This document shows, piece by piece, positions 4,657 through 60,716 of a DNA stretch of 64,000 nt. This DNA comes from Psammoneis japonica (lineage: Eukaryota), in NCBI GenBank assembly GCA_008632985.1, contig QPGO01000057.1:124001-188000 (forward strand), read 5' to 3'. A program made the position numbers and the translations under genes. Position 1 is the first letter of the stretch; the number at the start of each line of letters is the position of its first letter. Below the pieces are notes generated by a model. That model was not told the DNA's origin. It searched no databases and saw nothing but the letters and a program-made list of their open reading frames with translations.

Positions 4657-4680
4657 TACATATCTCAAAGGAAGACATCA

Positions 4681-7614: not shown

Positions 7615-7899
7615 TATATCAGGGGAGGATAATGGTTTATGTTATGCGCGGTGAGTCGTAAGCAATGCAGCACTCGATCCGTCATCGGAGCACACCATGT
7701 TCAATGTTGCCGGCAACGCTTGGCCGGGTTCGCGGTTTGAATTCTGGCATTCTAATAAATCATGTCCGTATTATTTGAATATTTTCCAACGCTTGCCTTT
7801 ATTCAACTCTGAAGAAGTAGTTATAATGTCAGCATCAGTTTTCTTTGACGTCTGTCAGTGCCGGCGGATCTTTCGAAATGAATGTGCGACTTGATAAAA

Positions 7900-11981: not shown

Positions 11982-12206
11982 GTTCAAGAAATGCCGGCTA
12001 CGGTAGTAGTGCAGCCAGTAGATATTGTAGTTACCACATGAGTGAGTCACTCCAGAGACCGATAGTAGGTAGCTAAAGTATACCTTTTAAAATTGTTTAC
12101 TCTGCGATTTTAGCCACCAACTTAATTCTTCAATCGAGAGATAGAGCGATCCATATGCGAACGATGTCGTCTATCTGTCATCTGCCGAGCTGATTTCCTT
12201 TTTACA

Positions 12207-14376: not shown

Positions 14377-14403
14377 CTGCTGCTGCTGCTGCTGCTGCTG
14401 CTG
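14377..14403. repeat. (CTG)n microsatellite
   Basis: About nine CTG units. Confidence 0.9.
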
Positions 14404-15593: not shown

Positions 15594-17080
15594 ATGACAT
15601 ACAGAAGATCTCGTCTTGATAATGAAAAGAAGAAATCCAACTTGAATCAAGTTGTGGCTGGTGATTCTGACAGGCGGGTCGTCAAAAGCAGATCAAAACT
15701 TACGTCTCGCTCGAGAAAGATCTTCTTGTTTCTCCTTCTTGTTCCGGTTATAACGTTATGGGGACTCAATCTTATGGTAATGGATCCGGAAAGCTCGCCA
15801 GACGCGTCGTCACAACGTCATAAAATCTGTCGTCGAACGTGGTATGGGAGATGGAAGTGCAGAGACTGTGGAAGTGACGGAAAAAGTTGTCGCGTTCTGT
15901 CTCCCAAGGGATTGTGCCCTCCGTTTTATAGACAAGAATGGGATTCCCCGCCCAGACGTTCCAGCTTGTACAATCCAGCATCGAATACCGAGGTGTCTCA
16001 TAGCCTGGTTACCTCTTATGGAGTGCGAAAGAAGATCCGGCGTACCTATGACTTAGCATCCTGTTCAGTAGCGATTCCCTCGTGCTTCAATTTGACAAAA
16101 TGCCATCATTTGATTGATAATTCACAAAGTTTGCTAAGGGTATATGCAGGAACAAGAACGAATCATCCAAAGCACAGAGTACGTGAATCGGGCTGCAAAA
16201 AAGGATGTGATAGTGCGAGTTTACGATCCGTCGGAGGCTTGCTTGATTGTCATCACGAACGACCTGTATGAGACACCACAGTCACTGTCGACGAGAGAAA
16301 CGTGGAACGACGGGCAGAATCATTTGTTTGGGATGTTCAAGGCGATGCTCCATTCAAGAAAGTTGGAACTTTTGGAATGGCCGCAACATCTTGCGGTGCA
16401 TTCACAAACGCGCAAATTCGATTGGGCTATGACATGTCTATTGCGTTGCGGTCAAAATGGAAAAGACCGACTCAGTACAGTGACTTGGATATCCATCGTC
16501 CACGGCGTCTTCTACTTAGTTTCAAAGGCAGTGTTATGGACTCATTTATGCCATACTATCAGCATCGGTGGCTTGCGGCAGAGTACTGGGACACGACTGA
16601 CCGTGATGTTGTCGTGGACGTGCAATGCAAGTATCGTGGATTGTTAGGGGGGCACTCAATCGATTCTACTTCCCGAAGCATTATGATGATAGTGATCCTG
16701 CATCATATGGAGAACTTCTGTTGAACTCGACATTTGGCTTTGCTCCTGGAGGAAGCGGAGCCTCATCCTTTCGATTTACCGAAATCCTCTCCGCAGATGG
16801 GATTCCTGTTGTTCTGCCGGAAATGGTACCACCCTTTTCCCCAGAGATTGATTGGTCCGACTGCGTGGTTCGAATCAGCGAAGAACGTATCGTCGATCTG
16901 CCTAGGATACTCCGTAAAATGCCTGCCAATGAAGTAAGGAAACGACAACGCGTTTGCTCAACCCTGTACAAGACCATCCTGCACGATGACGTCTACGGCC
17001 AGTTTGAGGTCGCCATGAAGATTTGGAAGATCCGAGTGAAGAATGCTTTACAGTTGAAATTAGAAACAAGCAAGATTTAG
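15594..17080 (+). CDS. Exostosin-family (GT47) glycosyltransferase
   Basis: N-terminal TM; WNDGQNH; LLLSFKGS; YGELLLNSTFGFAPGGSGASSFRFTEILSADGIPVV...PFSPEIDW. Needs about 3 frame corrections. Confidence 0.85.
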
Positions 17081-34500: not shown

Positions 34501-34821
34501 GTCTTGCTGTTCCCTTGCTTGTTCGACACACGTTGTTCCCTTTTCTTCGCACAAGAAAGCTCGAGTTTCAGAGCATTCTACAGTGACAACTCATGAGAAA
34601 TCTTCATCCTCATCTTCTTTCCCTTGCTCTGCCAGCTTTCGATTGTTTCTCCGACCGTTGATGTTCCCGCACATTTCATGCATGTCATCAGGGATCTGCT
34701 TCTCTTTTGGCGTGCGACGATTGCATCGCTGCATCAACAGCTCTTGCAGACTGTCATCAGATGACACTTGGATCAACAAAGCAGCCAACAAACAAAAGAT
34801 TTCCAAATGCCGCACCATCAT
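31590..34821 (-). pseudogene. Subtilisin (S8) protease pseudogene with signal peptide and C-terminal hydrophobic tail
   Basis: GKGVKVAVLDSGIDCTH (canonical IDYTH), QGHGMAVAS (HGT), GASFLAPVVAGAAA (GTSxxAP), IAAGN. Multiple stops and shifts. Confidence 0.88.
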
Positions 34822-34879
34822 GGCACTGTGAAGCAGGGGCATGCTTGCTTGACAGACAAGTCGACGGCGACAGAGAGTG

Positions 34880-35804
34880 TGAATGGGAAATGCAGACAAT
34901 GAGCCGTCGAAAGGATGAATTCTACGAGCATTTCATCGAAAAAGCCCTCGTTGCTCTTGAGTTCATCAATTGGTTGTAAAAAGTCAGCAGAAACAAAAGG
35001 TTGGACCACGGTGTGTGCGTTGAGCATGTCGAATCATTTCTGGAGATGAGAGACAAGTCAACTCCACAAATCTGTTTGGCTGGCACTCCGGCCTTTGTCA
35101 GAGACGGCACCAAAACGCCTGGTCCACAACCTGCATCCAAGCACTTGCCGCCACTCCCAATCGCATCGGCAATGATGGAGCATGCGTGATTGACCCGTTC
35201 TTGCATCTCGGCTGGCATGTTTCCTGTTGGAGCATGGGCGGCCTTTGCATCAGCCGATGCATCCCAAGTGAGCCTTTGGAACAGGTTGTGCAGCAGCTTG
35301 TCTGAAAGTTCTGATGGATGTTGCTCACAAAGGGCACGCAGCTGTTCCTTGGCACGTCTTGCGCCCTCCATGTCTTGGGGAGGTAACTTTGTTTGTTGCA
35401 AGATTGGCATCTTCAAAATGTGTGCATCCCATCGTTTTGCTTGCTGGCACAATTGAGCAGCTGTCTGAACATGCTCTGGCAGTTGCTCATGGCTTTCTGA
35501 ATGCGCTCCGATGTGCCACAAGCCACATCACCACCACATTGATCCAACAATTGTTCCTTTGCACATTTGATGTCCTTGGTGCTCTTCTTGTTTTGTGCCG
35601 GAGCTCTTCCCAAAGCCTCCACCTGCGCCGCCTCCAAATCCCTGGGCACACAAGACAACGCGACGTCTTGTTGATGTCTTCAGAAAACATGGTGATGCTT
35701 GCCAAATCCGCGATGCAAAAAAGCCATGCACACCATTGCCAGAGCTGACGCCAAGCAACAACATGAAAAAAAAACAGAACAACGCATGGCGGGTCCGATC
35801 TCAT
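34880..35804 (-). pseudogene. Class I SAM-dependent methyltransferase pseudogene
   Basis: KCLDAGCGPG motif I and ICGVDLS...SPEMIR motif II, with frameshifts. Confidence 0.75.
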
Positions 35805-37099
35805 GGATGATTTGTGATGAGAACGATGGACGGTGGCATCATTGCATCACATCATCACATGTTGTCATCCAACATCACACATCGCGCATGCACGCGCTCA
35901 CAGGAGGCAACGAGACGAGAACAAGCAGCAGGCGCATGCTGCGGCACAAAGCAGCAGCCACACATCTGTTGAAAGGGTGGTGATGGCACCCTCAAAGATG
36001 AGCACCTGTCAGAAGCATCTTTTGCCAGCGGCGCTGCTTTTGTGGACAACCAAGTTCCTGTCCACACTGCAAGCAGCCTGCATCTTTGCGAGGTTCTTTG
36101 AACAAGAAAGGTCAGTGCCGGAGTGCACAAACATTGCATGCTTGCCTCTTTGTGGGAAGTGGTGGCTCCGAGTGCACTCACCACAGACATGATTGCAGGC
36201 CCTGGGATGACCCACAAAAGTTCTTCTCTTTGCCCAGTTTGCCAGCAGGGCGGCACACTCCTCACACATTTTGTTGTGGAAAAGGCAGCCAACATTGGCA
36301 GCGCATTGGCTGGGAAGGCAGCAGCACATGTTGTGGGACTTTCATGAAGAGACCCATGGACCATGAGCTGAATGCTTTTCCCATTGGGCACCAGACAGCA
36401 ACAGGATTTTGTGCTTGTTGTCCCATCAAGAAGGGCTGGAAATGTGATGGCTCTTGCCTCCATTGGAATGCCGTCTTTGCTCGTTGGCCACTGTGATTCT
36501 GAAAGAATGGCTGCAAACAGATTTTGGTGGATTGATCAAGTGGCTTGCAGGCACTTGACTGGAAATTGGGTGCCAGATGCAGAAACAGCAGAGCCCTGGT
36601 CAAATGAGTTGCAAGAGGACACAAACACATGCAAAGCACTCCCCCAGAATCTCCCTGTGACAGGTGCAATGTTTTTTTTTTTGCTGCTCAGAAAAGACAT
36701 GCAGCACAATGACTCAGGGGTCACCCAACACTTTTCATCCAAAGGCAAAGAAGCTGTGCTGAGTGAGGATCTTGATGATTGCTTGAGGCCAGTGAACCAT
36801 TTTCAACAAAATTTGCATCAGCAGCGACAAGGCCTTGCAATCTTCTGAACTTGCCAATGAAGGCAGCAACATTGCAGCCACTGCAAAGATCAGTTCCTGC
36901 ATTGCCAAGAGGCCAATGTGTCAATGCACAGCAGCCAAACCTCCAATCATTGCAAGCATCAAAATGTTGAAAAGAAAAAACCAAAAGAGGGAGGTGGCAA
37001 GCTGTTGCAAGACACAATCTCCATGTTCAAAATGAGCATGACATTGAAGTGTCAACTGCACACATGAAATGGGAGAGAACAGGCACCACAATCATTTGC

Positions 37100-40000
37100 T
37101 GATGAAAAAAGAAATGATGCAGAAAAACACAACAAGCTCAGAAGGACAAAGACTTTCATGTCCGCCAAAAGAAGAGCTGCTGAGGCTCTGTTGTGGGGAT
37201 TGGGGATGCAAGGAGAGCAATGAACTGCAGGCAAGTGATTGGCAAAATTGCCAAAGCTGATGCAAAAGCTGGAAATTTGCTGAAGGCAATGATGCCATGC
37301 AGCAAAACAAGCTGCCAATGGTCATGCAAAATGCAAAGCAAAGTGTGAAAGAATGGATGCACAGCATGAGCAACTGCAATGGTGCTGAGGACAATGACCA
37401 TGATGAGCACAGCAAAGCATTGGAGACAATGGGCCTGGCATGGTTGGCTCTTGCCATCATGCCATGGCATTTGGCTCAAAAGCCAAGCATGCTGGGCATG
37501 CTTTTGCTGTGTGCCAGACTGTTGCGCCAGCTGAAGACAATCTTCGGGTGGGCCTCTCTGCAATGCTGCTGGGTGCATCAGGCCCAACCCAGAGGATGCA
37601 ACCCAATGCACAAAGTCTGCGCATGCTTGACAGCAGGGGTGCGGTGGTGCAAGGAGGTGGGGATGTGGGCCAAGCACCAACTTGAGAGTGGGTTGTGTGC
37701 TGAGAGAGCCCCCTTCAGCAACAAGTTGAATCTTGAGCACCACACACCATGCTTGCTGCAGCTAGCCAGGGCAGTCAGCACCAGCCAAGTTTCCAAAATC
37801 ACCACTGTAAGAAGATGGGGACTGCCCCAATGCTGGTGTCCCAGCCATTTTGCAAACATCTGGCACACAGCTTGTTGTTTTCTCTGACAATGAAAGTTGC
37901 TTTTGAGGAGATGTCTGAAGCAACATGTTGTTCTCTGACTCTCCCTCTCATTGCATGGTTGAAAGATCTTGAGAGTGCACTGCATCATGCTGGTTGAAGG
38001 TCAGTGGCCTGCGCAAGATGGAAAAAGAGGCAACATTGCCTCTTGCCAAGAATGCGCAACACCAGTGTCTCTCCAACAACCAACTCTGGGTGGAGCAAGG
38101 GTGTGAGCTGACTCCAAGGCAGCTTCCAAGTTGGAGTCAATTCCACCCAAGAACTCCACAGCCTGAGCCAAACAGCATGCCACCAAACCACCAACACAAC
38201 TCTTGGCTGTTCTTTGCACAGCCCTTGATCCACTGAACTTGCTGGAAGCATCCAACTCAGATTTGCACCCACTGATCAAAGACAACAGCTGGCTGCATCA
38301 GTGTGGGAATCCAGGTTTCATGCTGCCCATGTGGTTTGCCTTGTCCGCATCCACCAAATCATGGTGATCCTGCTCAAAATGTGAGCTGCTCTCACATGTC
38401 AGCTCATCTTTGGCAGAAACTGTGCCACACTCCTCCTCACTGTGCAAGATCGTGCATTTTTGCTTCAAACCAGCACAGAAGCAGCAGAAAGGGTTGTCCC
38501 ATTCTGTGCTGATGTTGACCTGATCAGCACACATGACAACAAATGGCTCAAGAAAGTGCAGTTTGGACACAACTCTTGGAGCCACTTGAGTGCATGGGCC
38601 TGCAAGCCAATGCCAACAAAACAAAACAAAACAAAATTGCAGCCTGCACACCTGGCCAAATCAGCAGCAAGGTGACCTCTCCAACACATTGTCAATGGTC
38701 AGAGGGTGCAGCATTGTCAAAGATGCCCCCCCTGATGGCATCCTGATTGTTTTGCAAAAATTTGATGTGGCTTGTTGTTCTCTGACTCTCACCCCTCATT
38801 GCATGGTTGGAAGTTGAGCACAAGCAGCACAGGCAAAGGTTGATGGCCTGCACAGGAAAACAGAATGAAGTGGCCTCACTTTTTGGAAACCAATCTTCCA
38901 CCTGTCAGAGGCACACCAAAATTTGCAACACAACTGGTGCCCCAAATGAACAGCCCAAAAGAGCACAAGGAGGTGAGACAAACTGGCATCAATCCTCACC
39001 AACTCCACAGAGCCCAAGCCAGACAAGAGAATGACACCAACCCACACAACTCTTGGTCACTCAGCAGCTCCTTCTGCTCTAAAGTTCTCACTTGAGACAT
39101 CCATCACATGTTTGCAACTGCTGTTCAAAGACAATGACATCAGTTTGTGGGACCCAATTTGCAGACTCTCGCCCATTCTTCATCTGGTTGTCTGCCAAAC
39201 AAGTCATGGAGATCCTGCTCAAAATGTGAGCCTGTCTTCAGCTCTTTCCTCAGATCCTCAGAGACTGTGTCACACTCACACTGTGCAAGTTTGCACACCA
39301 TTTCTCTGCTGTGACCAAAGAAACAGTCATGGAGTGGATTGTCCTGTTTTGTGCTGATGGTGGCCCAATCAATGTGCACACAACAATGAACAGCTCTCTC
39401 CAGAGAGTGCTCAAGCAACTCTCGGAGCCACTCCAATGCATGCTGGGTGCCTGCGTAAACCACCAACAATGCCAACAAAACCAAAACCATGGCCATCACA
39501 CCTGACTGCATCAGTGGCCAGTTGGTCCACCAACACATTGTGAATGGCTGGGGAGAGCACAGCAGTGCCAGCCTGCTGAGCAGCACACAGGTGTGCAGAA
39601 ACATGTTGGGTCAGTGTCCAGAGTGCAGGAAGAAGTGTGCTTGCTGCTGTGGGATGATCTCTGGACTCAACATGCCTTGGCTTCTCTTTTGGACAGAGCA
39701 GGCCAGGCAGATGCCCCTGGGCATCTGCCAGTGGAGCATTGGGCATTGGGTGAGGTTCCCGTGCACAACCTTCAGGGTTGTTCATCATCCTGTGGACACC
39801 CACTTGTGCAAGCCTGTGCTGCTGGGCAACCCAAATTTTGCAAGAAAGAATGTTTTGACAGCATCTCAACTTGCAACATCTCAATGACTCCATGTGCATC
39901 CTGGAGGAGGGCTCTTGCCCTCTGAAACAATGCAAGTTGTGCAAGAGGATGTGTGTGCTCTGTGTGCCATCCAAGCTGACCCCACAACCCAACTCTGCAT

Positions 40001-45549: not shown

Positions 45550-46221
45550 CTATTTTATGGCTATTCTGTACAATGAAATTCAGTGTTGCTTCGACAGAGC
45601 ACACTCCACTTGCTGCGCATGAAACATTCGAACGCACTTTCCCACGTCACACACTGGCACCAGACATTGCGGGCCAGTTTTTGGCCAGGACAATGAAGCA
45701 GAGCAAAACAAGACATCTTGGCATTGATAGAACCACAAGTTCTCAGAATCACCATTCAGCAATTCATCTTGTTTCAATTTGCTGGGAAAGCCATTTGGTG
45801 GATGGCGACAAGGGCTTCCACTGCGAACCCCGAAGCATGCCCCGTTTAGATGCGCCGCCAGCAGCAGAGTGACAACAACCGTACAATGGCTCACAAGTAA
45901 AAACAGTGCCATTAAAATGCAACTGACATCTGAAGAGAGTGTAAGACTCAGGTGATGTTTGCAATGGCAGACATGCAGTTCTTGCGCCTCTCATCAAACG
46001 GGTGGGGATCACGCACCCAAAGCATGGTCGACACCCCAATGCTTCACAACGCCACGGTGCATGGCGGCAAAAGGTCACTCAAAGTAGACTCAAGCTCCAG
46101 CGTCTTTGTGTGCATGGCAAAACTTTCTTTGAAACAGCCCCTCTGTCTCGAACGTTGTTTCCGGTCAAGATTGTCCTGGCCGATTCCGACATCCGGATGT
46201 GAGGTGGAACAAGCTTGTTGC

Positions 46222-47345
46222 TGACACGTCTCTCTTCCTCCATAAAATTAAACAGCGGTGGAAGGGCTTCTCCCCAGGGAAGACGGGTGCCTTCCAATCA
46301 AAGCTTGTCAAAAAGGCGTGAGCACACCCTTCAAGAGGCTTGATGCGATTGTCCAGAGTGTGCGCCAGAGTGGATGCTGTGCATTCCATTGCTTCTTCCG
46401 GCATCCTGTTTCGAAATGCCTTTTCCCACACTGACATCCCTTTGTCTGGGGAAACTTGAATTCAATGTAGTTGGAATTCATCGAGCTGATCTCCTTGCAT
46501 GTTTGGGGTTCCTAGAACCTTGATGATCTCTGCAAGCTGGTCGACACCCGAGTGGCCAGTGGGAAATGGAGTTGTCCCAGCAGCAGCTCCACTCCAACAC
46601 ACCCCTCCGACCAAATGTCAATGGCGGTGGTGCACTCTGTCGACCCGAAAATGAGTTCGGGTGCACGGCAGCATCTCAAGCAAATGTGTGATGCATTGGG
46701 TTCCCCACGAACAAGCCTCTTTGCACTCCCAAAGTCACACAGCTTTTAAGCTGCTGGTTTCTTGGGTCACCAGCAAATTCTGCAGCTTGATGTTGCGGTG
46801 GCAAATCCCCAAAGAGAGGACATGTGCCAGCGCTCGGGAGAGCTGGTGCAGGCAGAGCTTGACACACAAAGCAACGGGAGAGTGGCTTCTTGGATCTCTG
46901 ATGGGTCCACCCAACTGAGTGCACAGTTTCAGGGACATGCTCCAAAACCAGATTGAGGCACAGCTCATTGGGTTTTTGCCCTGCAAACGAAGAAGTCCAA
47001 CCGCGTGACTTCAGCGCTGCACACAAGAACAAACATGCCGCCACTTTTGCAAATCGAACAAAATCAACAAATCAACACAGGGCCCTGCGTGAAAGTAAAA
47101 GCAGTGCTTGAGTGCAACAATGTTGGAACGGGGATCCACAACAAGTTGACGCATGATCTGCAGCTCTCTGTTCTTGAAGCGCTTGTCATGAAGCACCTTT
47201 TCAATGGCGACAACATCTCCTGTTTCAACAACAGCCACTTGAAACACCACACCGAAGGACCCATTCCGACAACTCTTTCAGTTGAATGTGAAATCTGTTG
47301 CTCTCCCCCAGCCGCTTTCAAAGAAACAATTGATTTTGCTCGAGT
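46222..47345 (-). pseudogene. GSK3: GSK3/shaggy-like kinase pseudogene
   Basis: [85 protein letters not shown]. Frameshifted. Confidence 0.93.
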
Positions 47346-47940
47346 GGCACCATTGGACCTCACACAGTGTGACTGATTCTTCTCCTGAAATTTTGCTTGA
47401 TGCATCATTTTGGAGATGCAGTCACATGCCACACCAACGAGACAAAAGAGCACTCGCTTTTTCAACTTGTTCTTGTTGCTCTTTTTCTCCATCTGCAATG
47501 CTGGACCACTTGTTGCTTCAGCTGCAAGCACCTTGCAGTTTTGCATCTCGGATCGTTTCCATGCCCATTGTCTGGATGCAGGTGTGAGACTGGAGAGCTC
47601 TCTTGCTCAAGTGGCATGGCATGTGGCATGTGGCATGGGCTTGCCATCATTGCGTTGTTTTTTGTGTGTTTTTGTGGTGGGGGAACTGCCTCTGCCGGCA
47701 CCATGCCGTCACACCCAAAATTCCACCCAAGTGGCAAAAAAAAAGTTTTCTGCTGGAAAGTGGAACTCTCGCATGCAGAAATGTCAATGCGGAGACAGCA
47801 TCTTCTAAAGAATTCTGCCGCACTGTGCATCCACTGTTTGTTCCACTCAGGTGCAGTGGAAGGCACAGCAGAATTTTCGGAGCCAAAAATTCTGCCCTGC
47901 GCGTGCAGTGTGCATGCAGACAAAAGGTCATTTTTGTCAT

Positions 47941-48308
47941 GCCCTTTGTGACATTTAAAGGCTGCAACACGTCGCCGTGATGCGCTGGCTCTTGTTGGTG
48001 GCTGTGTGTTGCACTCCTCCCCATGTGTCACACGTCCATGCGGCTCTTTACTGGCACACACTGACACTGCACGGTTTTGGCGGAACAGTGTGGGTACGTG
48101 CAAAGGAACACACAGAACTGCACAGAGTTTTGCGCGTTCGACAGTGATCAATGTTGCTGCAGACAACTCCCACTCAGGGTTTCGAACCCCTGGCCTCCTG
48201 CCTGATGGTTGCGATGAACCACTCCGCTGTGAACGCCCTTTGTGACATTTAAAGGCTGCAACACGTCGCCGTGATGCATTGACTCTCGTCAGCAGCTGTG
48301 TGTTGCAC
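47941..48308 (+). repeat. 74-bp direct repeat (47941-48014 and 48235-48308)
   Basis: GCCCTTTGTGACATTTAAAGGCTGCAACACGTCGCCGTGATGC identical in both copies. Confidence 0.9.
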
Positions 48309-49007
48309 GCACCCCTTTCGCGCGATCTAAACCATCTGTCCTTGGTGAGGTCGGGTGCGACGGCAGGAACAAAAAAAATGCTCGAAAGTTCTGCTCGTCT
48401 CAATGCGGCATCTCAACCATGAGCGTTGCCGCGTGCAACCCCAGCAACTGCACCAATGCCAACTGCATCTGTGGTGGCATGGCAGTCAGCACTCACAGGC
48501 GTCCTGAGTGCAGCAGAAACCTTCACACTTCTTGTGGGAAAGCAGACGAACGACTTGCACTGCTTTCAACTTTGACAAGCTCCAAAGCACCCACTTGAGA
48601 TTGCTGTTGTGAGTTTCATGTTTAAATGGCACTGAACAGTTGCGTTGGCCTAAGAAACAATCAGCACCTTGCTGCACTTCCACCAGCTTGACAAGAAAAC
48701 AAGCTGCTCCCCAGCACGGAAGGCACGACCAAGGGTTGCTTGATCTTAAAACAGATTGTTCCGCATCCTTGGCTTGAGACACATTTTTTAACAACTGTTT
48801 GGTCCACAATGATCTTGGCACTTTTGCTGCCATGGGTGCTGAGTGGACCTGCGAGGGACAATGAGACTGGAGAAACAGTGAGGAACAAACTCTGCCACAC
48901 TCGACAATCATCAAACGCCCAAAACATGAGATGTGCACAACAAACAAACATTTCCATCACACATTTGACACCATCATTGGCAATTTTTTTTGTTCTCACC
49001 TTTGCAG

Positions 49008-49201
49008 TGTCAGCCCACCTGCACATGTCGTGTGATGGACAGACTGTGCATGGATGATGACCGGACCATCTAGATTGACGAGCAGATCTCTCTGAGATCT
49101 GCTTCTCACTTTCTCATCTGCCAGTGCTCATGTTGTCACAGTCCTGGCACTTCAGGGAGTCTTTCACACCTCTGTCATCATTGACCTTCGGCACTCTGTC
49201 A
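49008..49201 (+). repeat. 5' LTR
   Basis: Gap-free alignment with 55374-55567. Confidence 0.95.
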
Positions 49202-51480
49202 GGTTGTGGCCTTGTGCTGTGCCACAGACCTCTGTGCCAAGCTTTCCGTTTTGATTCATTTGTTTTGTGAGCCGATCGAGCAAGCCTCATCTCTTGTTCC
49301 CGGAAGGATTTTTATCTCGCTTTCCCGGCATTTTTCACGCTCATAGAAACACACCAGATTTCTGCACGTGCATGACCAAAAATGTTTTCACGAAGTAAAA
49401 CCATGGCGTCTCCCGACCTTGCAAAGGCCGCTCCCAAGTCTGTCACAGAGATCTGTCATGAGTTCCAATGACAGGATTTGAACAGGATTTGGGTGCGCGC
49501 GACATGTCGCGCGCTGTTTAGTTTACCGCGCACAGTTTTGTGTGCTTCAGTTTTGCGCGTTCGTGCGCGATGCAGTTTGCTTTCGAGCCACAAGGCTCAC
49601 AAGAACAATGACAGCAGCCCGATTGTGCCGACTTGCACGTCTTTCGTCTCTGAGTGGAGACTCATCTGCTGTTTAGACAGCAGCAAGGAGTCATTGTTTG
49701 AATTCTTGCCATTTGCTTTCAATTTCTGTCAGATTGACAGTCTTGCTCATTGTCAACCCATTGAGCAACCGCCATTGTCGTCGTTGATTTACCGACGACG
49801 CTGTTCCATTCTGTGTGGACCTCCGTGTGTGCTCTACGTACATCGGCAAGTCTGCGCGCATTCAATGCCAGGCATCGGCAGGAAGTTAACGTCGCCGTCA
49901 AGTCTCCTTGCCGCTGGATGTCTGGATTGATTGTGCTGCCTTTTGTCGCTGAAGACACACATTCAACGGTCATGTCCAAGTCCATCCTTGATCCTCATCC
50001 CTTGACACACCCATTCAACGGTTAACGGTCAAGAACCCCACACATTCAAGGATCTTCGTTGCTGAAGACATGCACATGTGCACATCTTCACGGCCAAGGA
50101 CTTGAACCCACTCTTTGGACTGCGGCTTTGCCACCACTCTACAAGCACACCAAGTCTGTTGCACCTGATCTACCCCGGACCACTGGTGCTCTGCAGTTCC
50201 ACCAGGTCCACGAGGACGACTGTGAGAGCAAGCAGCCATGATTGCAGCCCACGTTGGGGCAAGGGTGTTTTCCCGCGTTTGTTCGTTCGTCCACAGCACC
50301 TGACGCCTGCGTCAACTGGCCAGCCTGATCGAGAAATCCAACCGATGTAAAACAAGAACGGTTCAGGGGTCTTGTCCACCTCTGGTCAGCTCACCTGCAG
50401 GGGTTTGCAACCCGCTGCTCTGCTCGCAAGCAACCCAAAGCGCCACCAGCTGCGGGTTCGGACGTGCCGGCACAACTCTGTGGACCGGACAGGAAGTTTA
50501 GCACTTGACAACAAATGGGACAGCACACCCCGGCGACTTCTGATTTTTTAGGATGGTTCAAGATTTCAAGTCAAGTCCATTTCAAGCCAAGTTCCAAGTC
50601 AAAACTCTGAGTCAAGATCATGCTCTAGATTGGCTCCTGTCTTTTGTTTCTACTGCACCGTCCTCCGTCATGGTTCTCACGCGACAGCAACAAACCGAAA
50701 GCTTCAAATGCATTCTAGGCACTGTGCTCAATCAAGACAATGACAGCCCTCTTTGTTCTGCCCTGTCCATCAATGGGATTGAATCGTGTGAGGAATTGTT
50801 CACGTTCTCACCCACCCAAATTGATGCCCTCACTTGCAGAGACGGCGCCAATGCAGTGCCTTTGCCACGGACCCACAGAAACCTCCTAGCAGCTTTGATC
50901 AGCTTCTGCTTTGTCAAAGTTTGCAACGGTGATGATGTGACCAATGAACCCCAGTTGCTCACACCCGACGAATTTCGCAACTGCCGCCTTGGTCCGGACT
51001 GCTTGACCTCTCTAGCCACTGGCGCAGCACCCTCTGCACCTGTGCCGAGTCCCTTGCCATCCAAACCAGGTGAACCCAGTGCCATTTTGACACCAGCCTT
51101 GCACTGTGCCGAAACTCAGGTGTCCCCTAGAAGTGGTGTCAGCCGCGCCCCGCATGTCTTGACCAACCCGCCTGCAAGCAACCTCGGCCCAGTGCAGGAT
51201 TGCAGCCCTTGCGCAGGCCCGCACTTCAAGACCAGTTGGGACACTCCACCCATGGCTTCCAAAGCTGCAGTCTTTGCACCCCGCAAACCATGTGCTGCCA
51301 ACCTCCACATGTTGACCGCTGTCACCCTTCACAGTCTTCGTTTGGGAAGTGATGGAGATGACAACTTGCTTCTCGCATCTCCTGATGGGGAGCCTCCTTT
51401 TCCCGTCATTGAATCTGTTCACAACAGTTCAACCGGTTCATCAGATGGGGAGTTCAGGACATCCAAGCAGCTTCGTTGTC

Positions 51481-52245
51481 TTTGGATCCTCCAAGCATCG
51501 CACCACGAGACGAGGCCTCCTGATCGGATGCCTCAAGTCTCGCACCTCAAGACTGGGCCTCCTGATTGGATGCCTCAAGTCTCGTGCCTCAAGACTGGGC
51601 CTCCTGGTTGGATCCTCCAAGTCTCGCACCTCGAGACTGGGCCTCCTGATTGGATGCCCCAAGTCTTGTACCTCGAGACCAGGTCTCCTGATTGGATGTC
51701 CCAAGTGTCGCACCTCGAGACCAGGCCTCCTGATTGGATGCCTCAAGTCTCGTGCCTCGAGACTGGGCCTCCTGGTTGGATCCCCCAAGTCTCGTACCTC
51801 GAGACCAGGCCTCCTGATCAGATGCCTCAAGTCTCGTACATCGAGACTGGGCCTCCTGATCGGATGCCCCAAGTCTTGTGCCTTGAGACCAGGCCTCCCA
51901 ACTGGACTCTCCACGTCTCGTGCCTCGAGACCAGGCCTCCCAATTGGATCCTCCACGTCTCGCACCTCAAGACTCGGCCTCCGGATTGGATCCCTCAATT
52001 CTTGCGCCACGAGACCCGGCCTCCTGATTGGATCCCCCAAGTCTCGCACCTCAAGACTTGGCCTCCTGATTGGATCCCCGAAGACTCGTGTCACAAGACT
52101 GGCAAGTCCTTTTGGATCCCAGAAGTCTTGCAGCACGGGACTGGTTGCCCCAATCAGACATCTGCAGCCCTGCATCACAAGATGTCTTGCTCCAATCCGA
52201 TCCCTGAAGGCTTGCACCTTGAGACTCGTTTCTCCAATTGGATCA
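51481..52245 (+). repeat. 42-bp tandem array, about 18 units, inside the LTR element
   Basis: Unit reads ET(G/R)PPD(W/R)MPQVS(Y/H/C)L. Confidence 0.97.
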
Positions 52246-55200
52246 GTCTCTCAGGAGATGCAGCTGAGCTTGCAATCGGATTGGTGGAACACAAGACCAC
52301 CGCTTGTGCCTTTGAACTCATGCTTGCTCTGTTCCCCAAGTCGTGCAAACACCATGCCACCCTGCACGAGCACTGCTCTGTTTTTCTGGCAGCAGCCCAG
52401 TGTGGCAACTGTTCCAAGAACCAACAGACGGCCATCAGTCTTTACGACCTTTGCTCAGGAAGTGAAGGCGATGTCAACTTGTTTGCATTGTCCTGCGATG
52501 TTGCCCCGCCATTCAACATTGTCAACCAGAGACTCATCTGCCATTTAGACAGCAGCAAGGAGTCATTGTTTGAATTCTTGCCATTTGCCTTCAATTTCTG
52601 TCATCCAAGCACATGGCACTCCACCACACGTCCATGCGTCCCTGAACAGGCTGCACGCGGATGCCACATTGGATCTGGATCTGTTCTTCAACGATCCAGA
52701 ACACACTTGGCCCAAGAAGAATTTTGTGGACTCATTCCATGAGTTTCTCATAAATCAAGCGATTCCACCTCACACGGTGGATCCTGTGGACATGCAGTCC
52801 ATCAAGACGATTGTGGATGAAGCTCGTTTTTGCGTTGTGGACCCTGCCAAGTCTCACGCGATTCGTTTGATGCCTGAAGGTCTCTCAACCATGATCAAGT
52901 TGAATCTTCAGCAACACGAGCAATTTCTCTACATTCGTGTGTCAACGCACCATGTGCACTTCAATCCTGATGTGACATGGAATTACAGAGATTGGAAAGA
53001 GTTTTCTCTGTCCCCACACACATCCAAACAAGCTCACGTGGCTCCACAGTCATCGAGTGTGAATCCTTCGTTGATGTGCATGGACCATTTCACAACAACA
53101 TCGCGTCATGTTGTGCACAACCACACTCGACAACTGCAAAGCATTGTGGAGGCACTCTTGCGTGTGATGCACCCCAGTGTCGACCTCCACAAGAACATCT
53201 GCCTCATCCAGCGACGAGCATGAATTCCTCGTTGATTGGTGTCTGCGATTCCGTCACAACCGGGCGTGGTCCTTCATCAGCAACTGCGCCACTCCATGCA
53301 AACACAACCATGCATCCTGGAGGCACTGACATGCATCTTCCTTCCAATTGTGTGCCACATGCAAAACAAGGAGCTCTTGTGCCTCTTTCAATGACGAGTG
53401 CACCTCTTCCCTCTACAAGCATTCATGATCTTGTTGATGTGTCATGCAACTCCTCATTGGGGTCTGCATCATCCATTGTGCCTGCCACTTTGTCTTCTGG
53501 AGAATCTGCTGCACCTGTCATGTCTGTGGATCAGGGTGTGACTCCTGACATCAAGGCCACTGGGGAGATTGAAATTGGTTCTCGTGTTTGGGTTCGAGAG
53601 CCCGGTTCCCGTCGCTCCAAGTTGCACCCCGTCCCAAAGAAGGGCATTTTCCTTGGTCATTCATCTGACACCAACAAGCACGTCCTGTGGCAGGATCCTG
53701 AAAACTCTCAGATCAAGATGGACACGAATGTGCACTTCAACGAGGGCATGGACGGACCTCCTCGTGCAAAGGATCAACGCCATCCAGACCTTTCATCTTC
53801 CGGTGACCGTGACGGATGTGAGAAAGCCTCTTCACTCTTTTCCTCACCTCCGGCCTCGTCTTTGACTGATCATGCATTTGAAGATTCCAAGATGGACGCC
53901 GCCACCGAGTCCTCCAGCCAAGATGATGCAGATGTGACTCAAGATGAAGGTGCAATCTTAACGGGTGCTCGGATTGATCCTGTGAATGCCACTGCACTGG
54001 ATGTCAAGTCTCCCATGTCTGTTGTGGTTCCTGCGAGCAAGACATCTGCAATTGTTGGCACCGGTTCACTTGCATTGTCCATCGGATTGGTGGCATTTCC
54101 CGCCGACCTCCATGCTTGCCTGCTCAAGACCCCAAAGTTTTTTGTGTCTGGCAACCCCATTGTTTCATGCAATGGGGCTCGCTTCAATCCATTGGATGGA
54201 TCACACTGCATTGCCAAGGTCACCCTTGAGCTGTTTGCTGCCTCTGTGGCACCGTCGCATGATGCGAATGATGCCTGTGGATGCAGCCAGAGCTCTGTTG
54301 GTTGGTTGTCAGGTTACTTCGTCCTTGGATTTTTGGCTCGGCCGTCGTTAATTTCGGATGTGCGATGCTGCCATTCCTTCCATTGTCCGAACAAGACCAA
54401 CAGAAGCGGGGTTGTTGTGAAAGAGGGCCACCGAGTCTCACTGCCTTCCGCTGTGCCATCTCTTTCCTCCGTTGTCAGGACCATTGTCACGTCTGTTTGC
54501 ACTTTTCATGGTGCTCCAGACCTGCCCACCATCGCTGATGATGATCCTTTGTTTTCTTGTCAAAGGAGGGAGCAACATTGTGCAGAAGAACTGTGCAAGA
54601 TTGACAACCACACCAACTCTTCCAGTGTGTTGCCTTCTTCCTTTGCTGTCAAGACCGCTGTGGTGTTGAGCGGTGTTTTTCCTGGTGGTCCCGACCTGTC
54701 GACTGTCCCCGACGATGACCCTGCATTTTTAGATCAGGGGAGGGATTCCCACAGCACAGAGGAAGCATGTCAGGCTGTTGAGAACATCACATTCAATCAA
54801 GAAACCGTGCTTGATGACCATCATTTGAAGGCCTTGCGATGCTCACTTGCGATGCGTCACTGTTCTTCCGACGTTGAGTGACTGCACGATGCATTTTGTT
54901 TGTCCAATGTGTTCTTCAGGGGTGACACATCCGGTGGCAGAAATGTTGTTTTGTCAGGTGGATTGCTGTTGCTTCTTTATTGCCGCGCTGTCCGCCATGG
55001 TGGATTTGCATTTTCTGGCTCCATCCCTTCCGATGAGATTTGGTGACAGCATGACTTGCCAGAATGTCTTTCTGCGATCGATTGCTTGTTGATTGACAAA
55101 TTCATTTCTTTGGTGCAAGACTCGATTTGTCTTCAAGATTTGTTGGAAACTGCCTTTGATGTTTTTGTCGAAGACTCCGTTGGATCAGCACATGTGCCCA

Positions 55201-55373
55201 GCTGCCTTTGGAGATTTTTTGGAGATGTCATTGCCCTGTGCTGTGTGGTTCCTTTACGATTGCGAGTTGAGCCTGGACACTTTGTTTTGTTGTCCGGTCT
55301 GTTTGCATCATCCCTGTTCTTTGTTTTGATCTGCGCTGCTCTCCATGTTGAGACATTGCAGATCAGGGGAGGG

Positions 55374-55567
55374 TGTCAGCCTGCCTGTGCATGTCGCATG
55401 ATGGACAGACTGCACATGGATGATGACTGGACCATCTAGATTGACGAGCAGATCTCTCTGAGATCTGCTTCTCACTTTCTCATCTACTGGAACTCGTGTC
55501 ATCACAGTCCTGGTGCTTTGGAGAGTCTTTCATGCCTCTGTCATCATTGACCTTCAGTGTTCTGTCA
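55374..55567 (+). repeat. 3' LTR
   Basis: Preceded by the PPT at 55365-55373 and followed by the TSD. Confidence 0.95.
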
Positions 55568-56488
55568 TGCAGTCCGAAGCCAAGCTTGATTGTGAAAGCT
55601 GCTGTGTCAGATGCGGCAGTCCTGTCAGTGTCCTCTCTGGGAGCAAAAGTCGTGAAACACCCAAGAGGTGAGGAGCAGCAACAAATCCACTGCAAGCATC
55701 ATTTTTTTTCACAGTCACACCAGTCTGCAGCGGTGTTCATGCCGTTGCTGCAATGGGTGCCGGGTGGACCTGTGAGCGACCACAAAACAACAGAAAAAGT
55801 GAGAGAAAAGCTGTGCTCCAGAAAAAAGCATCAAACGCCCAAAAGACGGGCTTTGCAATGAGCACAAACACAACCATGAGATTTTGAATGGTTCCTTCAG
55901 CGAGCATTGGCATTCTCACCTTTGTCCTCAAATTGCCAAGCAGAAATGTCATCGCTGCTGCTGCCGACGCGATGGCGCCGCATGTTTCCTCTCTTGCAGC
56001 AAAAGTCATCAAACACCCAAAAGGCAAGGGCAAGCAAAAAATCCAAAGCAAGCATTGTTTTTCTCACAATCGCATCAGTCAACATTGGCATTCATGCCTT
56101 TGCTGCAATGGGTGCCGAGTGGAACTGCGGGCGTTCAAAGGCCATGGTTCGTCTTGGCGTTTTTTTTTTGGCTTCAACTCCTCTCGTGGGTTTGCGCAGG
56201 TTGATCACCAGCACGTGGCTTCTGCACTGATGGCCATGGCTTGGTCTTCTTCCCCATGGGATGAGCACTGCTCTCCACAGGGTAGAACTGAGGGCAGATT
56301 TTTTTGGATGCATTGGCCCGGCAGTGTTTCGGAAGGAAGCAGCCAACTTTTGCAACTCGGGACTGCGAGAGATGCGAATCGTGCGAAACTTGGTCCATCC
56401 ACAGATGCGTGAAGAAAATGAGCACTGGTGCTGCGCTGCACAGCACCGGCGCTCGTCAGCACACATCACACATCATCAAAGTCACATC

Positions 56489-58700
56489 ATGTCATCACTG
56501 TTCAACACGGCTCGGAGCCACCAAGACTCTGTTTTGTCACCTGACCACTGGGTGTCAACAGACACGGTCTCACCACTGAGTGAGACACAAAACACCAAGT
56601 GTGGCAAGTGTTGCTGCTGTCACCAATCCATGCGCCAAGAGAAAAAGTCTTGGCCAACTGTTGCATCCACCGGCAACAGCGGCACCACAGTGACAAGTGC
56701 CGCAAGTGCTGCAGCAGACATTCTCGCGAGGGCAGATGGAACACAGCTTTCCCGAGGGTCGGCAATCAAACTTTTTGAGTGGCATGAAAAAGAAAATGAT
56801 GAGAGTCTCTCTTTGACAAAATTGGGCACTCTGAATGACGAGGAAGCGAAAGGCGCAAGGCCATCATGAAGAGCTTGATCAGTTTGTCTTGGTGGATGAA
56901 AAATGCGCCTGTTCTGCAACAAAATGACACTGGGAAAGCCATGGGTGAGCGATCCACAAAACAACATTTTTCAAGCATCAAAGAGACAATGAAGAACAAA
57001 ACTCTGGCACTGGAAACATGGGACAACCACGAGGAAAATTGGTGCACCGACCTGTGAGACAGCCTGGGCAAGGGTAAAAAGCACAGCCTTCTCAAAGGCA
57101 AAGAAGAATTCAAAGAAACAACCTGTGAGGCACTTCTAATTTGCAATTCTCTTAAAAAGCTGTGAGTTGGCCATAGAATGTGGCATGAGATGCTTGGTGT
57201 TGATCTCGAATCAATCTGTAAAAATGTCATTCGTCAAGACAAGCCGGGTGCATGTCGTGATTGTGCAAAGCTCATGCTCACGTCTCTTGCAGTTGGCCGT
57301 GGTGGAGAAGTTACGTTTCTGTGCTGGAATGAGTTCCAGTGGGATGATTTGTTTCTTGCGGTGGAAGGTGCACGGACCAGAGTGAAGACCTTGTCGCAGC
57401 AGATGTTGCATTTCCAAGGGCATCATGATGGGTTCCTGTGCTGCATCCATTGGACCCTGGGAGCATTCTTTGCTGTGGAAGATGGCTTGTGCCGGCATGA
57501 CAGCTTGGACAAGAAAACAAAGCTGGCAAACAAGGCATTGTTCCCAGATCTTTGGTGGATTTCTGATGCAGCTGCAGCGGTGCAACTTGCAAAATCAACA
57601 AAGGAAAACTCGGACGCCCAGATGCATGTGTTCAATTCATCTCGGAGCATTTGCGTTGGCTCCAACACTGAGCTTTCAATTCATCCAGACATTGCACCAG
57701 AGGAGCAACGTCTTGCTGGTGGTTTCTTGGCTGGTGACAACATTGAGCTGCACACCAGAATGAATCCTTTGGCTGGAATGGTGCCGGCCAATGTGCTTGC
57801 GGGATTTGAGCATCCACGAGACATGGTGCATCCAGCAAGTCTGGATGCTCTTGTGGGCCATGTCACAGCAGAGGAAATGGACTGACTTGTGTCATGTCTG
57901 TGCCTCATGTTGGTTTCTTTATTTCAACCGGACGGCCGTCTTTGACCTCTCCTGCACAATGTGACAACCGCTAAGTTGGCAATGAAGTGCCCTGTTGTGC
58001 ACAAGGAGTTTGGCCCTGGGAATTGATTGGTGTGCAAATTGGTGTCCTCTGTTGTAAAAGCCAGGTTGGCAATGTCTCCAGGGGGAGGCACACTGCAAAT
58101 TGGTCATGTGGGCGGGCATCATTGACAAGGCCCACGAATCGGAAAACAGTCGGGTGCCAGATGCAGCAGACACAACTTTGACAGATGCAATCAACAAGCA
58201 GTCATGTGTGATCCAAAAACTTGTGCAGTTGAATTTGAAACTGCAGCAGAAACAAGCTCTTGTTGGATCTGAAGTGTCTGGACTGAAGACATTGACAACA
58301 ACCACATTCTTGTCGTCTGTTGTCACTGCGCTGAAGGCAGCGTTCTGTGGGCGTGGGCAGCTGAGGAGCCAGAAACAAACAACAACACTGAAGAACCCGT
58401 TGTGGAACAGGAATGTGCTCACAATGCCAGAGCTGACAAGATTTTGACAGCATCCTGGCTGCAGTTGCACATGAAACAGAGCATGCAGCATTCACCAACT
58501 TGACAAAAAGACAAGCTTGTCCAGCCTGCGGATGACAATGACTGGTGTCGGTGGCAGGTGCAATGAGTGTTGTGAAGCCAACGGGTGCATCCACCACAAA
58601 GGTGGGAAGAGGAGTCCTGCAGAGATGTCAACAGAGGGAGGAACAGGTGTCTTGACTTCATTCTTCTCAAGAATGAAGAATGCAGTGTCACCAGCATGAG
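56489..58700 (+). mobile_element. Decayed tyrosine-recombinase (Crypton-like) element
   Basis: AVGRGGEV (catalytic R), VKT, SSRSICVG (xxxR box with R->C), IELHTR (expected Y->H), ANVLAGF. Internal TGA stops. Confidence 0.6.
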
Positions 58701-60716
58701 CAAAGAAGCACCGCACAAGCACTGAATGATGGTGAATTGTTGCGCATTGAATGGCGCATTGTGTGGATGTGCTTTGGGTGCCAGCAGGTTTTGTTCTTTC
58801 AATTGCAGGAACTGTCATGCATCCCTCACCACCACAATCCTTGTGAGAACAAAGCAACAGAAGAAAAACCGTGCAAGCAACAAATGACAAACAACATGCA
58901 GTCATGTTGTTCTCCACTTGCATGCCAACTCTCGTGTGTCCCCTCTCATTGTGGCACTTCCAGTCAATGTTGTTTTAATTCTGCTGCTGTGCAAACTCTT
59001 GTGCACCCCCCCCTCTCTACCACAATCCTCGTTGAACAAAGAAAGGGAAGAAACACAGCACAAGCACTGAATGACACATTGCACAGAGGTGCACAACAGC
59101 AATTGCTGTTCTTTTGCTGATTCCACACAAACTCTTGTGCACCCCTCTCCACCACAATCATCATCAAAAATCCCTTTTCTGTGCTGAGCTTCACAACTTG
59201 GCAATCATCATCATGCACATGCTTGCTGAGTGAATCAAGTGGAAACTTGCAAAGGTTGTCAATGTCTGCAACTCTAAAAATGTTTCCCCTCTGACTGCCT
59301 TGTTTTGGTGGAGGAAACAAAAAACATGCAGTCACCAACATGAACAGACTCGCATTGGCGCAAAAGCAGGGCAGAGACACTTTGTGCCAGGCACAAAGGT
59401 TGCGCACGAGTTTGGCAAACTCTGCCTGCAGCTTTTTTGATGGGTTGCAGACCTGGTCATGTTCCAACCAGCCCTGTCACATTGCTGTGAGCGTGGCCTG
59501 CCACGGGTGCAGAAGCTTGTGCTGTTCTGGCCTGCCATGAATGGATCGGACACTTCAAAAGAAAAAGCTGGTTTCTTCTTTTTCTTCTGTGTCGACCGCT
59601 GCTTTTTCTTCCCAGTGGGTCTTGAAACTGAGGCAATGGCAACCAAAGAAGGATTGTTGCTGCTTTGAGCAGACGGGTTCCAGTCCCAGGTGGGACTCCG
59701 TGTGACATTGGGCCCGCAGAATTCTGCGTGTGAGCTCCACAGCAAATTTGCACTGCAACGAAAATGTGAATGATCGCCAACAGAAAAAGAGGCAATTTTA
59801 CGAACGCATCTCCTCCTCCACACTTGGAGCACATCATTGACAGTTTGCCCGGGTGCATTCCACCGACATCAAAGAACACACCCAGCGCATTTTTATTCTC
59901 ACAAATGTTGAAAATAGAAAGCCTTTGGCTTCGCAAAATGGGGAGCATGAAACAATTTTGTAGAATGTGACATGCAGAAATGTGCATGCGCGACACACGA
60001 CGCGATCCAAAAAACCATTGATGTCACAGTGCAGCAGCACGAGGTCCCACCCAGAGCTGGAACGCGTCAGCAACAAAATGACACTTGATGACGATGGCGA
60101 CAATGAACACAAAAATCAACCACCTCATTGACTTTCTGCAACACAGCACTCATCCCACAATGCATCACAGTGATGCATTTGACCTTGGAACAAACTTGTC
60201 ATTGGTCAACATGCTGCAGCTCCATCTCGTGTTGAAGAACATGCTCGATGAAGTCGTCAACTCGATGAAGGTGTGTCAGCGTCGGTGAGGCATCACCACT
60301 CATTTTCCGCGAAAAGTTCATGGTCGAGTTGAAGATTCCTTCGGCGGTGAGGCCGAACTCTCGCGAGCAATTTAGATTCGAACTTGGACATGAACATGTG
60401 GCCGCCGCTGGCGGCATCAGGAATCTTTCGCGGCCGCGAAAGTTTCGACGCCTTGGGCCCTTCAGACGGACGGAAGACGGACGTTTCTTTTGTTCTGACG
60501 TCATGCATCACTATTGGTCATTGCTACTGTACTCTACTGTAGCTGCCGTAGCTGACGTGGCAGGCGCAGGCGCAGGCGGGCCAAAGCGTGACTGAAAACA
60601 GCACTGCCAACTAAAATCTACACGTGTTATTTCTTGCTCATTTTTTTGTCTCATTTCACGTCTTCATTGCATACTTTTACTGTTACTCAGAGTACCAAAT
60701 AAACCACGAAATAACG

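Follow-up and report, generated by a model that had tools for sequence, protein, structure and literature searches.

The closest described counterpart of the process considered here comes from the chlorarachniophyte Bigelowiella natans, in whose mutation-accumulation lines the mutation rate of two silent viral integrations exceeds that of the remaining genome by about 1000-fold or more. Of the 231 changes, 230 are A>G or T>C, every one of these at TpA, and only some of the lines show them (Mettrop et al., 2026, bioRxiv 10.64898/2026.01.13.699255). The preprint also describes genomic clusters in which TpA is scarce and CpA plus TpG are abundant, with an enrichment of reverse-transcriptase and DDE domains, and an ADAT2-like DNA adenine deaminase is the candidate put forward by its authors (bioRxiv 10.64898/2026.01.13.699255). 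Here we analyse 64,000 nucleotides of the nuclear genome of the diatom Psammoneis japonica (contig QPGO01000057.1, positions 124,001 to 188,000 of the forward strand; the whole stretch is called the window), which hold at 49008–55567 a degenerate, non-autonomous long terminal repeat (LTR) retrotransposon of the Ty1/Copia type. Its two LTRs differ mainly by reciprocal CA-versus-TG doublets, and we favour, with a probability of roughly 70%, a reading in which two processes have changed them, one of the two being directed at TpA.

The repeat-induced point mutation (RIP) of ascomycete fungi is the other system that comes to mind. Like the changes described here, it is restricted to transitions, specific to a dinucleotide and to particular copies, present on both strands and aimed at repeats, and it can change most of its targets and renders elements unrecognisable. 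RIP, however, turns C into T, chiefly at CpA, with TpA and an AT-rich sequence as the outcome, whereas here TpA is lost and not created, G+C stays near 0.5 (0.45–0.55 in the affected bins) and the consensus polarity is TA>TG/CA (see below). The process in the diatom is therefore the dinucleotide inverse of RIP, which was rejected as an explanation. Diatoms carry DNMT4, a relative of the fungal RID described as having no known function (PMC9998398), and a cytosine methyltransferase-like enzyme of this kind cannot by itself explain A>G changes. No report of TA-directed or RIP-like hypermutation in diatoms was found in the literature searched.

Divergence between the two LTRs

The LTR pair and its flanking duplications occupy the following positions of the window:

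49003..49007, + strand: target-site duplication TGCAG, left copy, from reading the sequence; the same TGCAG stands 3' of the 3' LTR
49008..49201, + strand: 5' LTR, 194 bp, with TG...CA termini; CG 4, TA 1, TG 22, CA 22, with about 11–12 of each dinucleotide expected
55374..55567, + strand: 3' LTR, 194 bp; CG 3, TA 2, TG 25, CA 18
55568..55572, + strand: target-site duplication TGCAG, right copy, from reading the sequence

Repeat finding gave the pair as a direct repeat, 49007–49201 and 55373–55567, with 86% identity and including the one G that precedes each LTR (49007, 55373); the LTR sequence itself runs TGTCAG...CTGTCA. Both TG and CA are abundant, with 18–25 occurrences each per LTR against an expectation of about 10–14 each. 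An ungapped alignment shows 28 differing bases in 194 bp (14.4%), 27 of them transitions and one a transversion. Ten CA/TG doublets (at 49016, 49022, 49031, 49047, 49122, 49134, 49148, 49153, 49167, and 49192) account for most of them, followed by three sites with CG against TG or CA (49062, 49130, and 49190), one with TG against TA (49120, the TA being in the 3' LTR) and four remaining bases (TG/AA at 49125–26, G/A at 49156, and C/T at 49194). This partition, obtained in an independent alignment, is exactly that of the initial annotation, which had ascribed the differences to dinucleotide-specific change after insertion. Their distribution bears this out: the 98 positions within pyrimidine–purine (YpR) steps hold 26 of the 28 differences, and the remaining 96 positions hold just 2 (2.1%). 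When 28 random transitions were simulated on the 5' LTR in 20,000 trials, a trial yielded 0.90 CA/TG doublets on average and never more than 6, and not a single one reached 10. Two CGs are intact in both LTRs, while a single TA is common to both and lies within CTAG, that is, a YTAR site (Y, pyrimidine; R, purine).

Ordinary sites have thus barely changed, which makes the insertion a young one, and LTR dating overestimates its age about seven-fold (14.4% divergence overall against 2.1% at the positions that are not hot), in agreement with what had been anticipated from the sequence.

The doublets run in both directions, with the 5' LTR carrying CA in seven and TG in three. Editing of reverse-transcription intermediates, by which the LTRs would have differed at birth, predicts one direction per LTR and was rejected on this count.

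The differences could also have been imported, either by gene conversion from diverged members of the family or through an assembly error that joined different copies of a high-copy family into a chimera. With 824 contigs at a likeness of at least 80% to 48950–49500 in one DNA sequencing run, the family is indeed very abundant, and the best run covers only 45% of the words of the stretch studied. Furthermore, the family variant table for 48950–49500, whose listed places cover some of the doublet positions and to which all the family frequencies given below are limited, has several doublet positions that are polymorphic, for instance 49122–23 with CA at 61% and TG at 38% of depth. On the other hand, identical 5-bp target-site duplications flank the element, the differences are dispersed along the LTR instead of forming a tract, and transversions account for 19 of the 81 variant places of the family against 1 of the 28 differences of the LTR pair (P = 0.005). 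Import is accordingly an explanation to which we attach very little weight.

TA-poor compartments of the window

Dinucleotide observed/expected (o/e) ratios were calculated in 2-kb bins over the window, together with the number of TA per 250 bp around the element. The latter is embedded in a larger unit:

46001..60000, no strand: TA-free, CG-poor compartment comprising the element and its tandem-repeat flanks; TA o/e 0.06–0.16, CG 0.36–0.72, TG and CA 1.4–1.9

Everywhere between 46 and 60 kb there are 0–5 TA per 250 bp, the flanks outside the LTRs included, and within the element itself TA o/e is 0.11 and CG o/e 0.60. Taking all affected bins together (8–10, 12–16, 32–40, and 46–60 kb), TA o/e is 0.01–0.21, CG 0.06–0.72 and TG/CA 1.4–2.1, compared to 0.41–0.71 for TA and 0.73–1.18 for CG in the genic bins. 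In absolute numbers, 28 kb of TA-poor bins contain 141 TA and 34 kb of genic bins 1256, about seven-fold fewer per kb. At the same time TG and CA are enriched, and the total number of YpR steps is conserved. The affected sequence is complex, not microsatellite, and at 2-kb resolution the boundaries between compartments are sharp.

Besides the compartment of the element, the stretches 8001–10000, 12001–16000, and 32001–40000 are nearly devoid of TA (0.01–0.21) and CG (0.06–0.60), with TG/CA up to 2.1, and are probably older hypermutated repeats. Pfam recognised no domain in the long open reading frames (ORFs) scanned at 15.5–16.3, 31.7–32.5, and 39.4–40.6 kb; across the window, 11 of the 20 long ORFs scanned gave none, all seven from TA-poor bins among them. 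Inside one of these TA- and CG-free stretches, a direct repeat (38152–38698 and 39001–39547, 65% identity) shows 12 CA/TG doublets in 202 differences.

A duplication within genic sequence behaves in the ordinary way. The direct repeat 2862–4661 and 5781–7619 (1.8 kb, 84% identity) has 249 differences, namely 135 transitions and 114 transversions, with 2 CA/TG doublets among them. The doublet pattern is thus confined to certain regions and does not characterise the genome at large, and duplication alone does not bring doublets about.

Polarity in a related Copia family

An integrase-alignment search provided 80 metagenomic loci, 62 of which form one Copia family with 76–100% identity to locus L046. 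The majority of these 62 copies was taken as the reference state. Five contigs that duplicate others (L010, L033, L063, L071, and L043) were left out of the motif, run, divergence, and doublet comparisons, although the pairwise listing of same and reciprocal outcomes still includes L010 and L071. TA o/e is about 0.6 in most of the 80 loci, and hence a low TA content is no inherent trait of Copia elements in this lineage.

Measured against the 62-copy consensus, TG or CA has replaced 23% of the TA sites and 24% of the CG sites, while other single transitions stand at 2–7%. These averages hide very different copies. TA loss is just 2–19% in 41 of the 62, whereas a group of hypermutated copies has lost 45–76% of the consensus TA sites against 17–29% of the CG sites:

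L006: TA lost 92/121 (56 TG, 36 CA; 76%); CG lost 22/128; background transitions 5.2%
L061: TA lost 69%; CG lost 26%; background transitions 8.9%
L036: TA lost 65%; CG lost 23%; background transitions 4.5%
L069: TA lost 57%; CG lost 20%; background transitions 4.6%
L067: TA lost 46%; CG lost 20%; background transitions 3.6%
L077: TA lost 45%; CG lost 29%; background transitions 3.9%

Copies of the same private divergence of about 1% have lost either 4% (L046) or 57–65% (L069 and L036) of their TA sites, and L069 reached its 57% with 0.5% private transitions. At TpA, A:T>G:C change is more than 100-fold faster than the background, specific to certain copies or regions and present on both strands, as TG and CA outcomes coexist inside single copies (56:36, 39:35, and 53:39). 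The most affected copy, L006, combines the highest TA loss with one of the lowest CG losses, so that the loss of TA is independent of CpG decay.

An untargeted, genome-wide neutral bias against TA and CG, with genes keeping their TA by selection and the compartments representing the neutral equilibrium, could be invoked instead, all the more as genic TA is also somewhat low (0.41–0.71). Nevertheless, the genic bins, with their intergenic and synonymous sites, hold about seven times more TA per kb, TA loss varies more than ten-fold among copies of similar private divergence in the related family, and the process in B. natans is local and episodic (bioRxiv 10.64898/2026.01.13.699255). We consider such a bias a most improbable cause.

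The direction of change follows from the comparison of hypermutated copies with each other. L006 and L036 have the same outcome at 36 and reciprocal outcomes at 31 of the TA sites changed in both; ancestral TG or CA would give agreement, and with copies agreeing only about half of the time the polarity is TA>TG/CA. In the 15 pairs formed by six independent hypermutated copies, the consensus at reciprocal doublets is TA in 199 cases, CG in 32, CA or TG in 152, and something else in 6. The idea, already put forward in the initial annotation, that reciprocal doublets arise from opposite-strand hits on one ancestral dinucleotide is borne out by these two results. In sum, nearly all changes are A>G or T>C and occur at TpA, whichever strand is concerned; they are local, and, in the metagenomic family only, they are episodic (2–76% TA loss).

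Tests for strand runs on the hypermutated copies were mostly null and the changes are spread along whole copies. In the moderately hypermutated L067 and L077 the TG and CA outcomes do come in runs (z = −2.9 and −1.9), while heavily mutated copies look random, which is suggestive of single episodes each being confined to one strand. Finally, L036 (a 13.5-kb contig, nearly identical to L033) has three partial LTR-like repeats at 219–1046, 4256–4992, and 12901–13398, in which TA stands against TG or CA in 7 of 10 difference runs (13 bases) of one pair and in 8 of 33 (44 bases) of another, with 1–3 CA/TG doublets besides. These repeats give the impression of the process at an earlier point, before saturation.

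Target motif

In the six hypermutated copies, A>G affects 31.8% of the A's that follow a T (369/1161) and 3.8–6.9% of those after other bases. The 3' neighbour matters as well, with rates of 46% for TAC, 42% for TAT, and 15% for both TAA and TAG, and the target in this family is 5'-TAY-3'. Such a preference makes RTAY vulnerable on both strands and YTAR on neither. The window can be examined for this by dividing the TA counts of the TA-poor bins by the length-scaled genic counts, and survival does follow the expected order: 18 RTAY remain where about 284 are expected (6%), the mixed classes survive at about 13%, and 51 YTAR remain against about 187 (27%; chi-square p = 6e-7). R_Y flanks are found at 6 of the 10 LTR doublets (binomial p = 0.016 against a 24% baseline) and at 96 of the 199 TA-derived reciprocal doublets of the 62-copy family.

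The same figures bear on editing at the RNA level, in which an ADAR-like enzyme would convert A to I in transcripts or reverse-transcription intermediates of the retrotransposon, to be fixed by retrotransposition. A preference for a 5' U is typical of ADARs, as stated in the B. natans preprint (bioRxiv 10.64898/2026.01.13.699255), and the same source reports the B. natans mutations as de novo changes in single-copy integrated DNA, which does not fit editing of RNA. Genomes with APOBEC-edited retroelements are known, and clustered, context-specific transitions in individual retroelement copies are a likeness to APOBEC and ADAR editing in general. Those activities, however, are strand-specific and take place during reverse transcription or on RNA, whereas here both strands are changed within single copies in the proportions given above, the LTRs of one insertion have diverged in both directions, and DNA that is no retroelement, in flanks and tandem repeats, is equally free of TA. 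A 3' G is, moreover, disfavoured (15%), unlike in ADAR editing. RNA editing is already largely refuted and can hardly be entertained any longer.

Ancestry of the doublets

Methylated CpG offers another route to TG and CA. If all ten doublets had been CG, deaminated on opposite strands, and the poverty in TA were an unrelated matter, plain methyl-CpG decay would suffice. Diatom transposons are CG-methylated, in Phaeodactylum in a DNMT5a-dependent manner (PMC9998398; PMC2806351). The signature of this decay, known from vertebrates and plants as well as diatoms, is present here: CG>TG/CA is seen, CG o/e is lowered to 0.06–0.72 in the same compartments, three LTR sites show CG against TG or CA, and some doublets are compatible with it. 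In the family, CG-type states are found at 49130, 49049–50, and 49366–67. The best account of the CpG loss would be that 5-methylcytosine of methylated transposons has been deaminated.

As the sole cause, however, decay of methylated CpG would need about 25 CpG per 194 bp and 86–93% decay in each LTR, while the interior keeps a CG o/e of 0.60 and two CGs survive in both LTRs. It spares TA, leaves no RTAY flank signature and is slower than the loss of TA in the element, so that the TA o/e of 0.01–0.2, the lower survival of RTAY than of YTAR and the wealth of doublets with R_Y flanks would have no explanation. In the 62-copy family, reciprocal doublets are about 6:1 TA-derived. A tandem array inside the element is also informative:

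51482..52089, + strand: 42-bp tandem array, about 14.5 units according to Tandem Repeats Finder (TRF)

Two CG columns of this array are intact in 12 and 9 of 15 units (80% and 60%), whereas two other YpR columns are split, one into CA 6, TG 5, TA 3, and CG 1, the other into TG 6 and CA 5. Neighbouring CpGs would not decay so unequally, and the split columns therefore point to TA. The initial annotation had named, as the outcome most damaging to its view, a consensus in which all doublets were CG and ancestral TA had been kept; what the element shows is a TA o/e of 0.11 next to a CG o/e of 0.60, i.e., TA loss that outruns CG loss. Methyl-CpG decay on its own is thus an improbable account of the LTR pair.

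Several observations, nonetheless, weigh against a reading that gives TpA the leading role. The polarity and the motif were established in metagenomic contigs of a different organism and not in the genome of the window, and four of the ten doublets have no R_Y flanks. In the family table, CG is the majority at 49130 (78% of depth), position 49063 is G/A at about 50:50, and at 49049–50 A>G is found in 22 contigs and C>T in 16, which fits some CG; the excess that fits TA is worth just one contig, at 49122–23. Judging from these states, some doublets or other changes are certainly CG-derived. At 49120, TG makes up 77% of family depth, so that the TA carried by the 3' LTR there is probably itself derived, which would be a change in the opposite direction. 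Lastly, a pure origin from either TA or CG needs about 22–25 such dinucleotides per 194 bp, unusually dense in both cases, and for that reason only a mixture fits comfortably. Taking everything into account, most of the ten doublets are probably derived from TA and a minority from CG, although the ancestry assigned to any one of them in this element can only be a putative one.

Proposed process and comparison with B. natans

We propose that the element lies in a silenced, repeat-rich compartment and that its two LTRs were mutated independently after insertion by two processes, both ending in TG or CA. The first would be a fast, locally targeted A:T>G:C hypermutation at TpA, yielding TG, or CA through the other strand, and working best at 5'-TAY-3'. 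The second would be a slower CpG decay, CG>TG/CA, as expected in methylated diatom transposons. Whenever one ancestral TA (or CG) was changed on opposite strands in the two LTRs, a CA-versus-TG doublet would result. At the chemical level, the reading that we favour for the first process is an adenine deamination of DNA within 5'-TAY-3', with the product repaired or replicated as G, and its targeting presumably follows silent chromatin or repeat status.

As to the enzyme, an adenine deaminase, e.g., of the TadA/ADAT2 type, is a tentative candidate, and the odds are somewhat against any such assignment. The natural substrate of TadA and ADAT is A34 following the invariant U33. A different chemistry would reach the same end if the thymine of TpA in silent chromatin were modified by a TET/JBP-like activity (to a base of the 5-hydroxymethyl- or 5-formyluracil type) and then mispaired with G, giving T>C at 5'-RTA-3'. 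In dinoflagellates 5-hydroxymethyluracil is enriched at TpA, and 5-formyluracil does mispair with G. T>C at RTA is A>G at TAY on the other strand, and the two are equivalent in sequence data. The U33–A34 logic of TadA/ADAT, however, readily explains the requirement for a 5' T, and the B. natans authors favour deamination (bioRxiv 10.64898/2026.01.13.699255). Thymine modification appears unlikely, although less so than the alternatives dealt with above.

Returning to a TpA-directed deamination, the likeness to B. natans is considerable. A>G or T>C at TpA gives TpG or CpA depending on the strand, the changes are confined to silent or foreign regions, they are episodic (some lines there, some copies here), and the long-term footprint is poor in TpA and rich in CpA plus TpG. 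There are also differences. The host is a chlorarachniophyte, a rhizarian, in one case and a diatom, a stramenopile, in the other. The inserts there are nucleocytoplasmic large DNA viruses (NCLDV) or virophages, whereas here LTR retrotransposons, tandem repeats, and unrecognisable compartments are affected. The footprint is far more extreme in the diatom (TA o/e 0.01–0.2 against 0.45 in the NCLDV region), with CpG decay superimposed, and a TAY preference was measured here while none was found stated in the main text of the preprint. De novo mutations were observed there, whereas our evidence is sequence comparison. By this analogy we take the diatom signal to be the same kind of process in another lineage of the SAR group (stramenopiles, alveolates, and rhizarians).

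In its widest form, the proposal would be that diatoms possess a natural DNA adenine-deaminase defence aimed at chromatin or repeats, whose 5'-TAY-3' target would suit an enzyme derived from TadA/ADAT2, which erases TpA from transposons and other repeats very soon after insertion, is shared with chlorarachniophytes and may be ancestral in SAR. Taken as a whole this is rather unlikely. If true, such a defence would do by A>G changes what RIP does in fungi, and engineered adenine base editors would have an equivalent in nature; the large TA-free "dark" compartments of diatom genomes, which resist annotation, would be accounted for as well. Less ambitiously, hypermutation at TpA only, so far reported in one chlorarachniophyte, would be extended to diatoms, which suggests that a genome defence of this kind is widespread among the major algae of the sea. 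The sharper target (TAY, at best RTAY) is a biochemical prediction that can be tested on the enzyme responsible, perhaps a DNA adenine deaminase of natural origin. In practical terms, dating by LTR divergence is badly biased and hypermutated elements escape annotation by homology. The process leaves a simple record in an LTR pair, as in any two copies that mutated independently, and reciprocal CA/TG doublets are a diagnostic for which whole genomes can be scanned.

Structure of the element and its surroundings

The usual components of an LTR retrotransposon are present, with direct LTRs ending in TG...CA, a 5-bp target-site duplication, a primer-binding site at the 5' LTR, and a polypurine tract at the 3' LTR. 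Beyond the features listed above, the element contains:

49202..49213, + strand: primer-binding-site-like sequence GGTTGTGGCCTT; relatives have GGTTATGA(G) at the same place
49657..49731, + strand: 75-bp internal duplicate, 96% identity to 52529–52603; the 3 differences are one CA/TG doublet and one C/T
53574..53747, + strand: remnant of the Copia integrase C-terminal SH3-like domain (Pfam PF25597, E = 5.5e-9), within the ORF 52971–54881
55360..55373, + strand: polypurine tract AGATCAGGGGAGGG, adjoining the 3' LTR, from reading the sequence

The sequence GGTTGTGGCC adjoins the end of the 5' LTR, and 49202–49209 read GGTTGTGG. The initial annotation had read this motif correctly, but the form typical of the relatives is GGTTATGA and not GGTTATGG, as the motif scan of the 80 related loci found the former 11 times and the latter once. 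In three relatives (L044, L051, and L080) the LTR end ..ACA is followed by GGTTATGA(G). The step from GGTTATGA to GGTTGTGG can be polarised and is a TA>TG change in a TAT context, one more indication that TA was the ancestral state. We call the site initiator-tRNA-type, the motif presumably pairing with the anticodon arm of that tRNA. Upstream of the LTR, the family consensus taken from assembled contigs ends in ...TCAGGGGAGG.

The integrase remnant, the type of primer-binding site and the 5-bp target-site duplication together assign the element to Copia. In a Copia polyprotein, gag, protease, and integrase precede the RVT_2 reverse transcriptase and RNase H. Pfam detected no reverse transcriptase in the five long + strand ORFs scanned, and a full Copia polyprotein was not found; with only the SH3 part of the integrase left, we read the element as degenerate and non-autonomous. 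This remnant is its only recognisable coding homology, as the 55 HMMER matches among 1.84 billion representatives all fall within about residues 172–330 of the ORF 52971–54881. Comparing Tyr with Arg codons in the SH3 region gave one Y/F>H and one R>H, too few sites to be of use.

The element was inserted in a tandem repeat of about 356 bp. Its upstream flank (48782–48957) is paralogous to the downstream units 55579–55877 and 55935–56133 (61–80% identity), all of them equally free of TA. The LTR core is present in the window in the two LTR copies only and had no exact-pattern match in the metagenome contigs scanned.

Inside the element, 49463–49580 is rich in CpG, with GCGCGC runs and two TA retained. 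The summed contig depth over 49463–49500 rises to 106,000–148,000 in one run, and this part is also present in three tiny runs, which suggests a short repeat of very high copy number that has seemingly escaped mutation. The tRNA-like appearance of 49463–49500 was not confirmed, Rfam and ARAGORN being without a match in the window.

The genes of the window are long, intron-poor ORFs. One of them encodes a UDP-glucuronate decarboxylase, whose best named relatives are those of Thalassiosira, Skeletonema, and other diatoms at 75–80% identity.

Long ORFs are also seen within the element, at 50544–52742 (732 aa) and 52971–54881 (636 aa). The hypermutated L006 has one of 852 aa (2246–4804), and all three are longer than the ORFs of the less mutated relative L046. 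Loss of TA removes the stop codons TAA and TAG, and the consequence is long spurious ORFs that gene finders may call.

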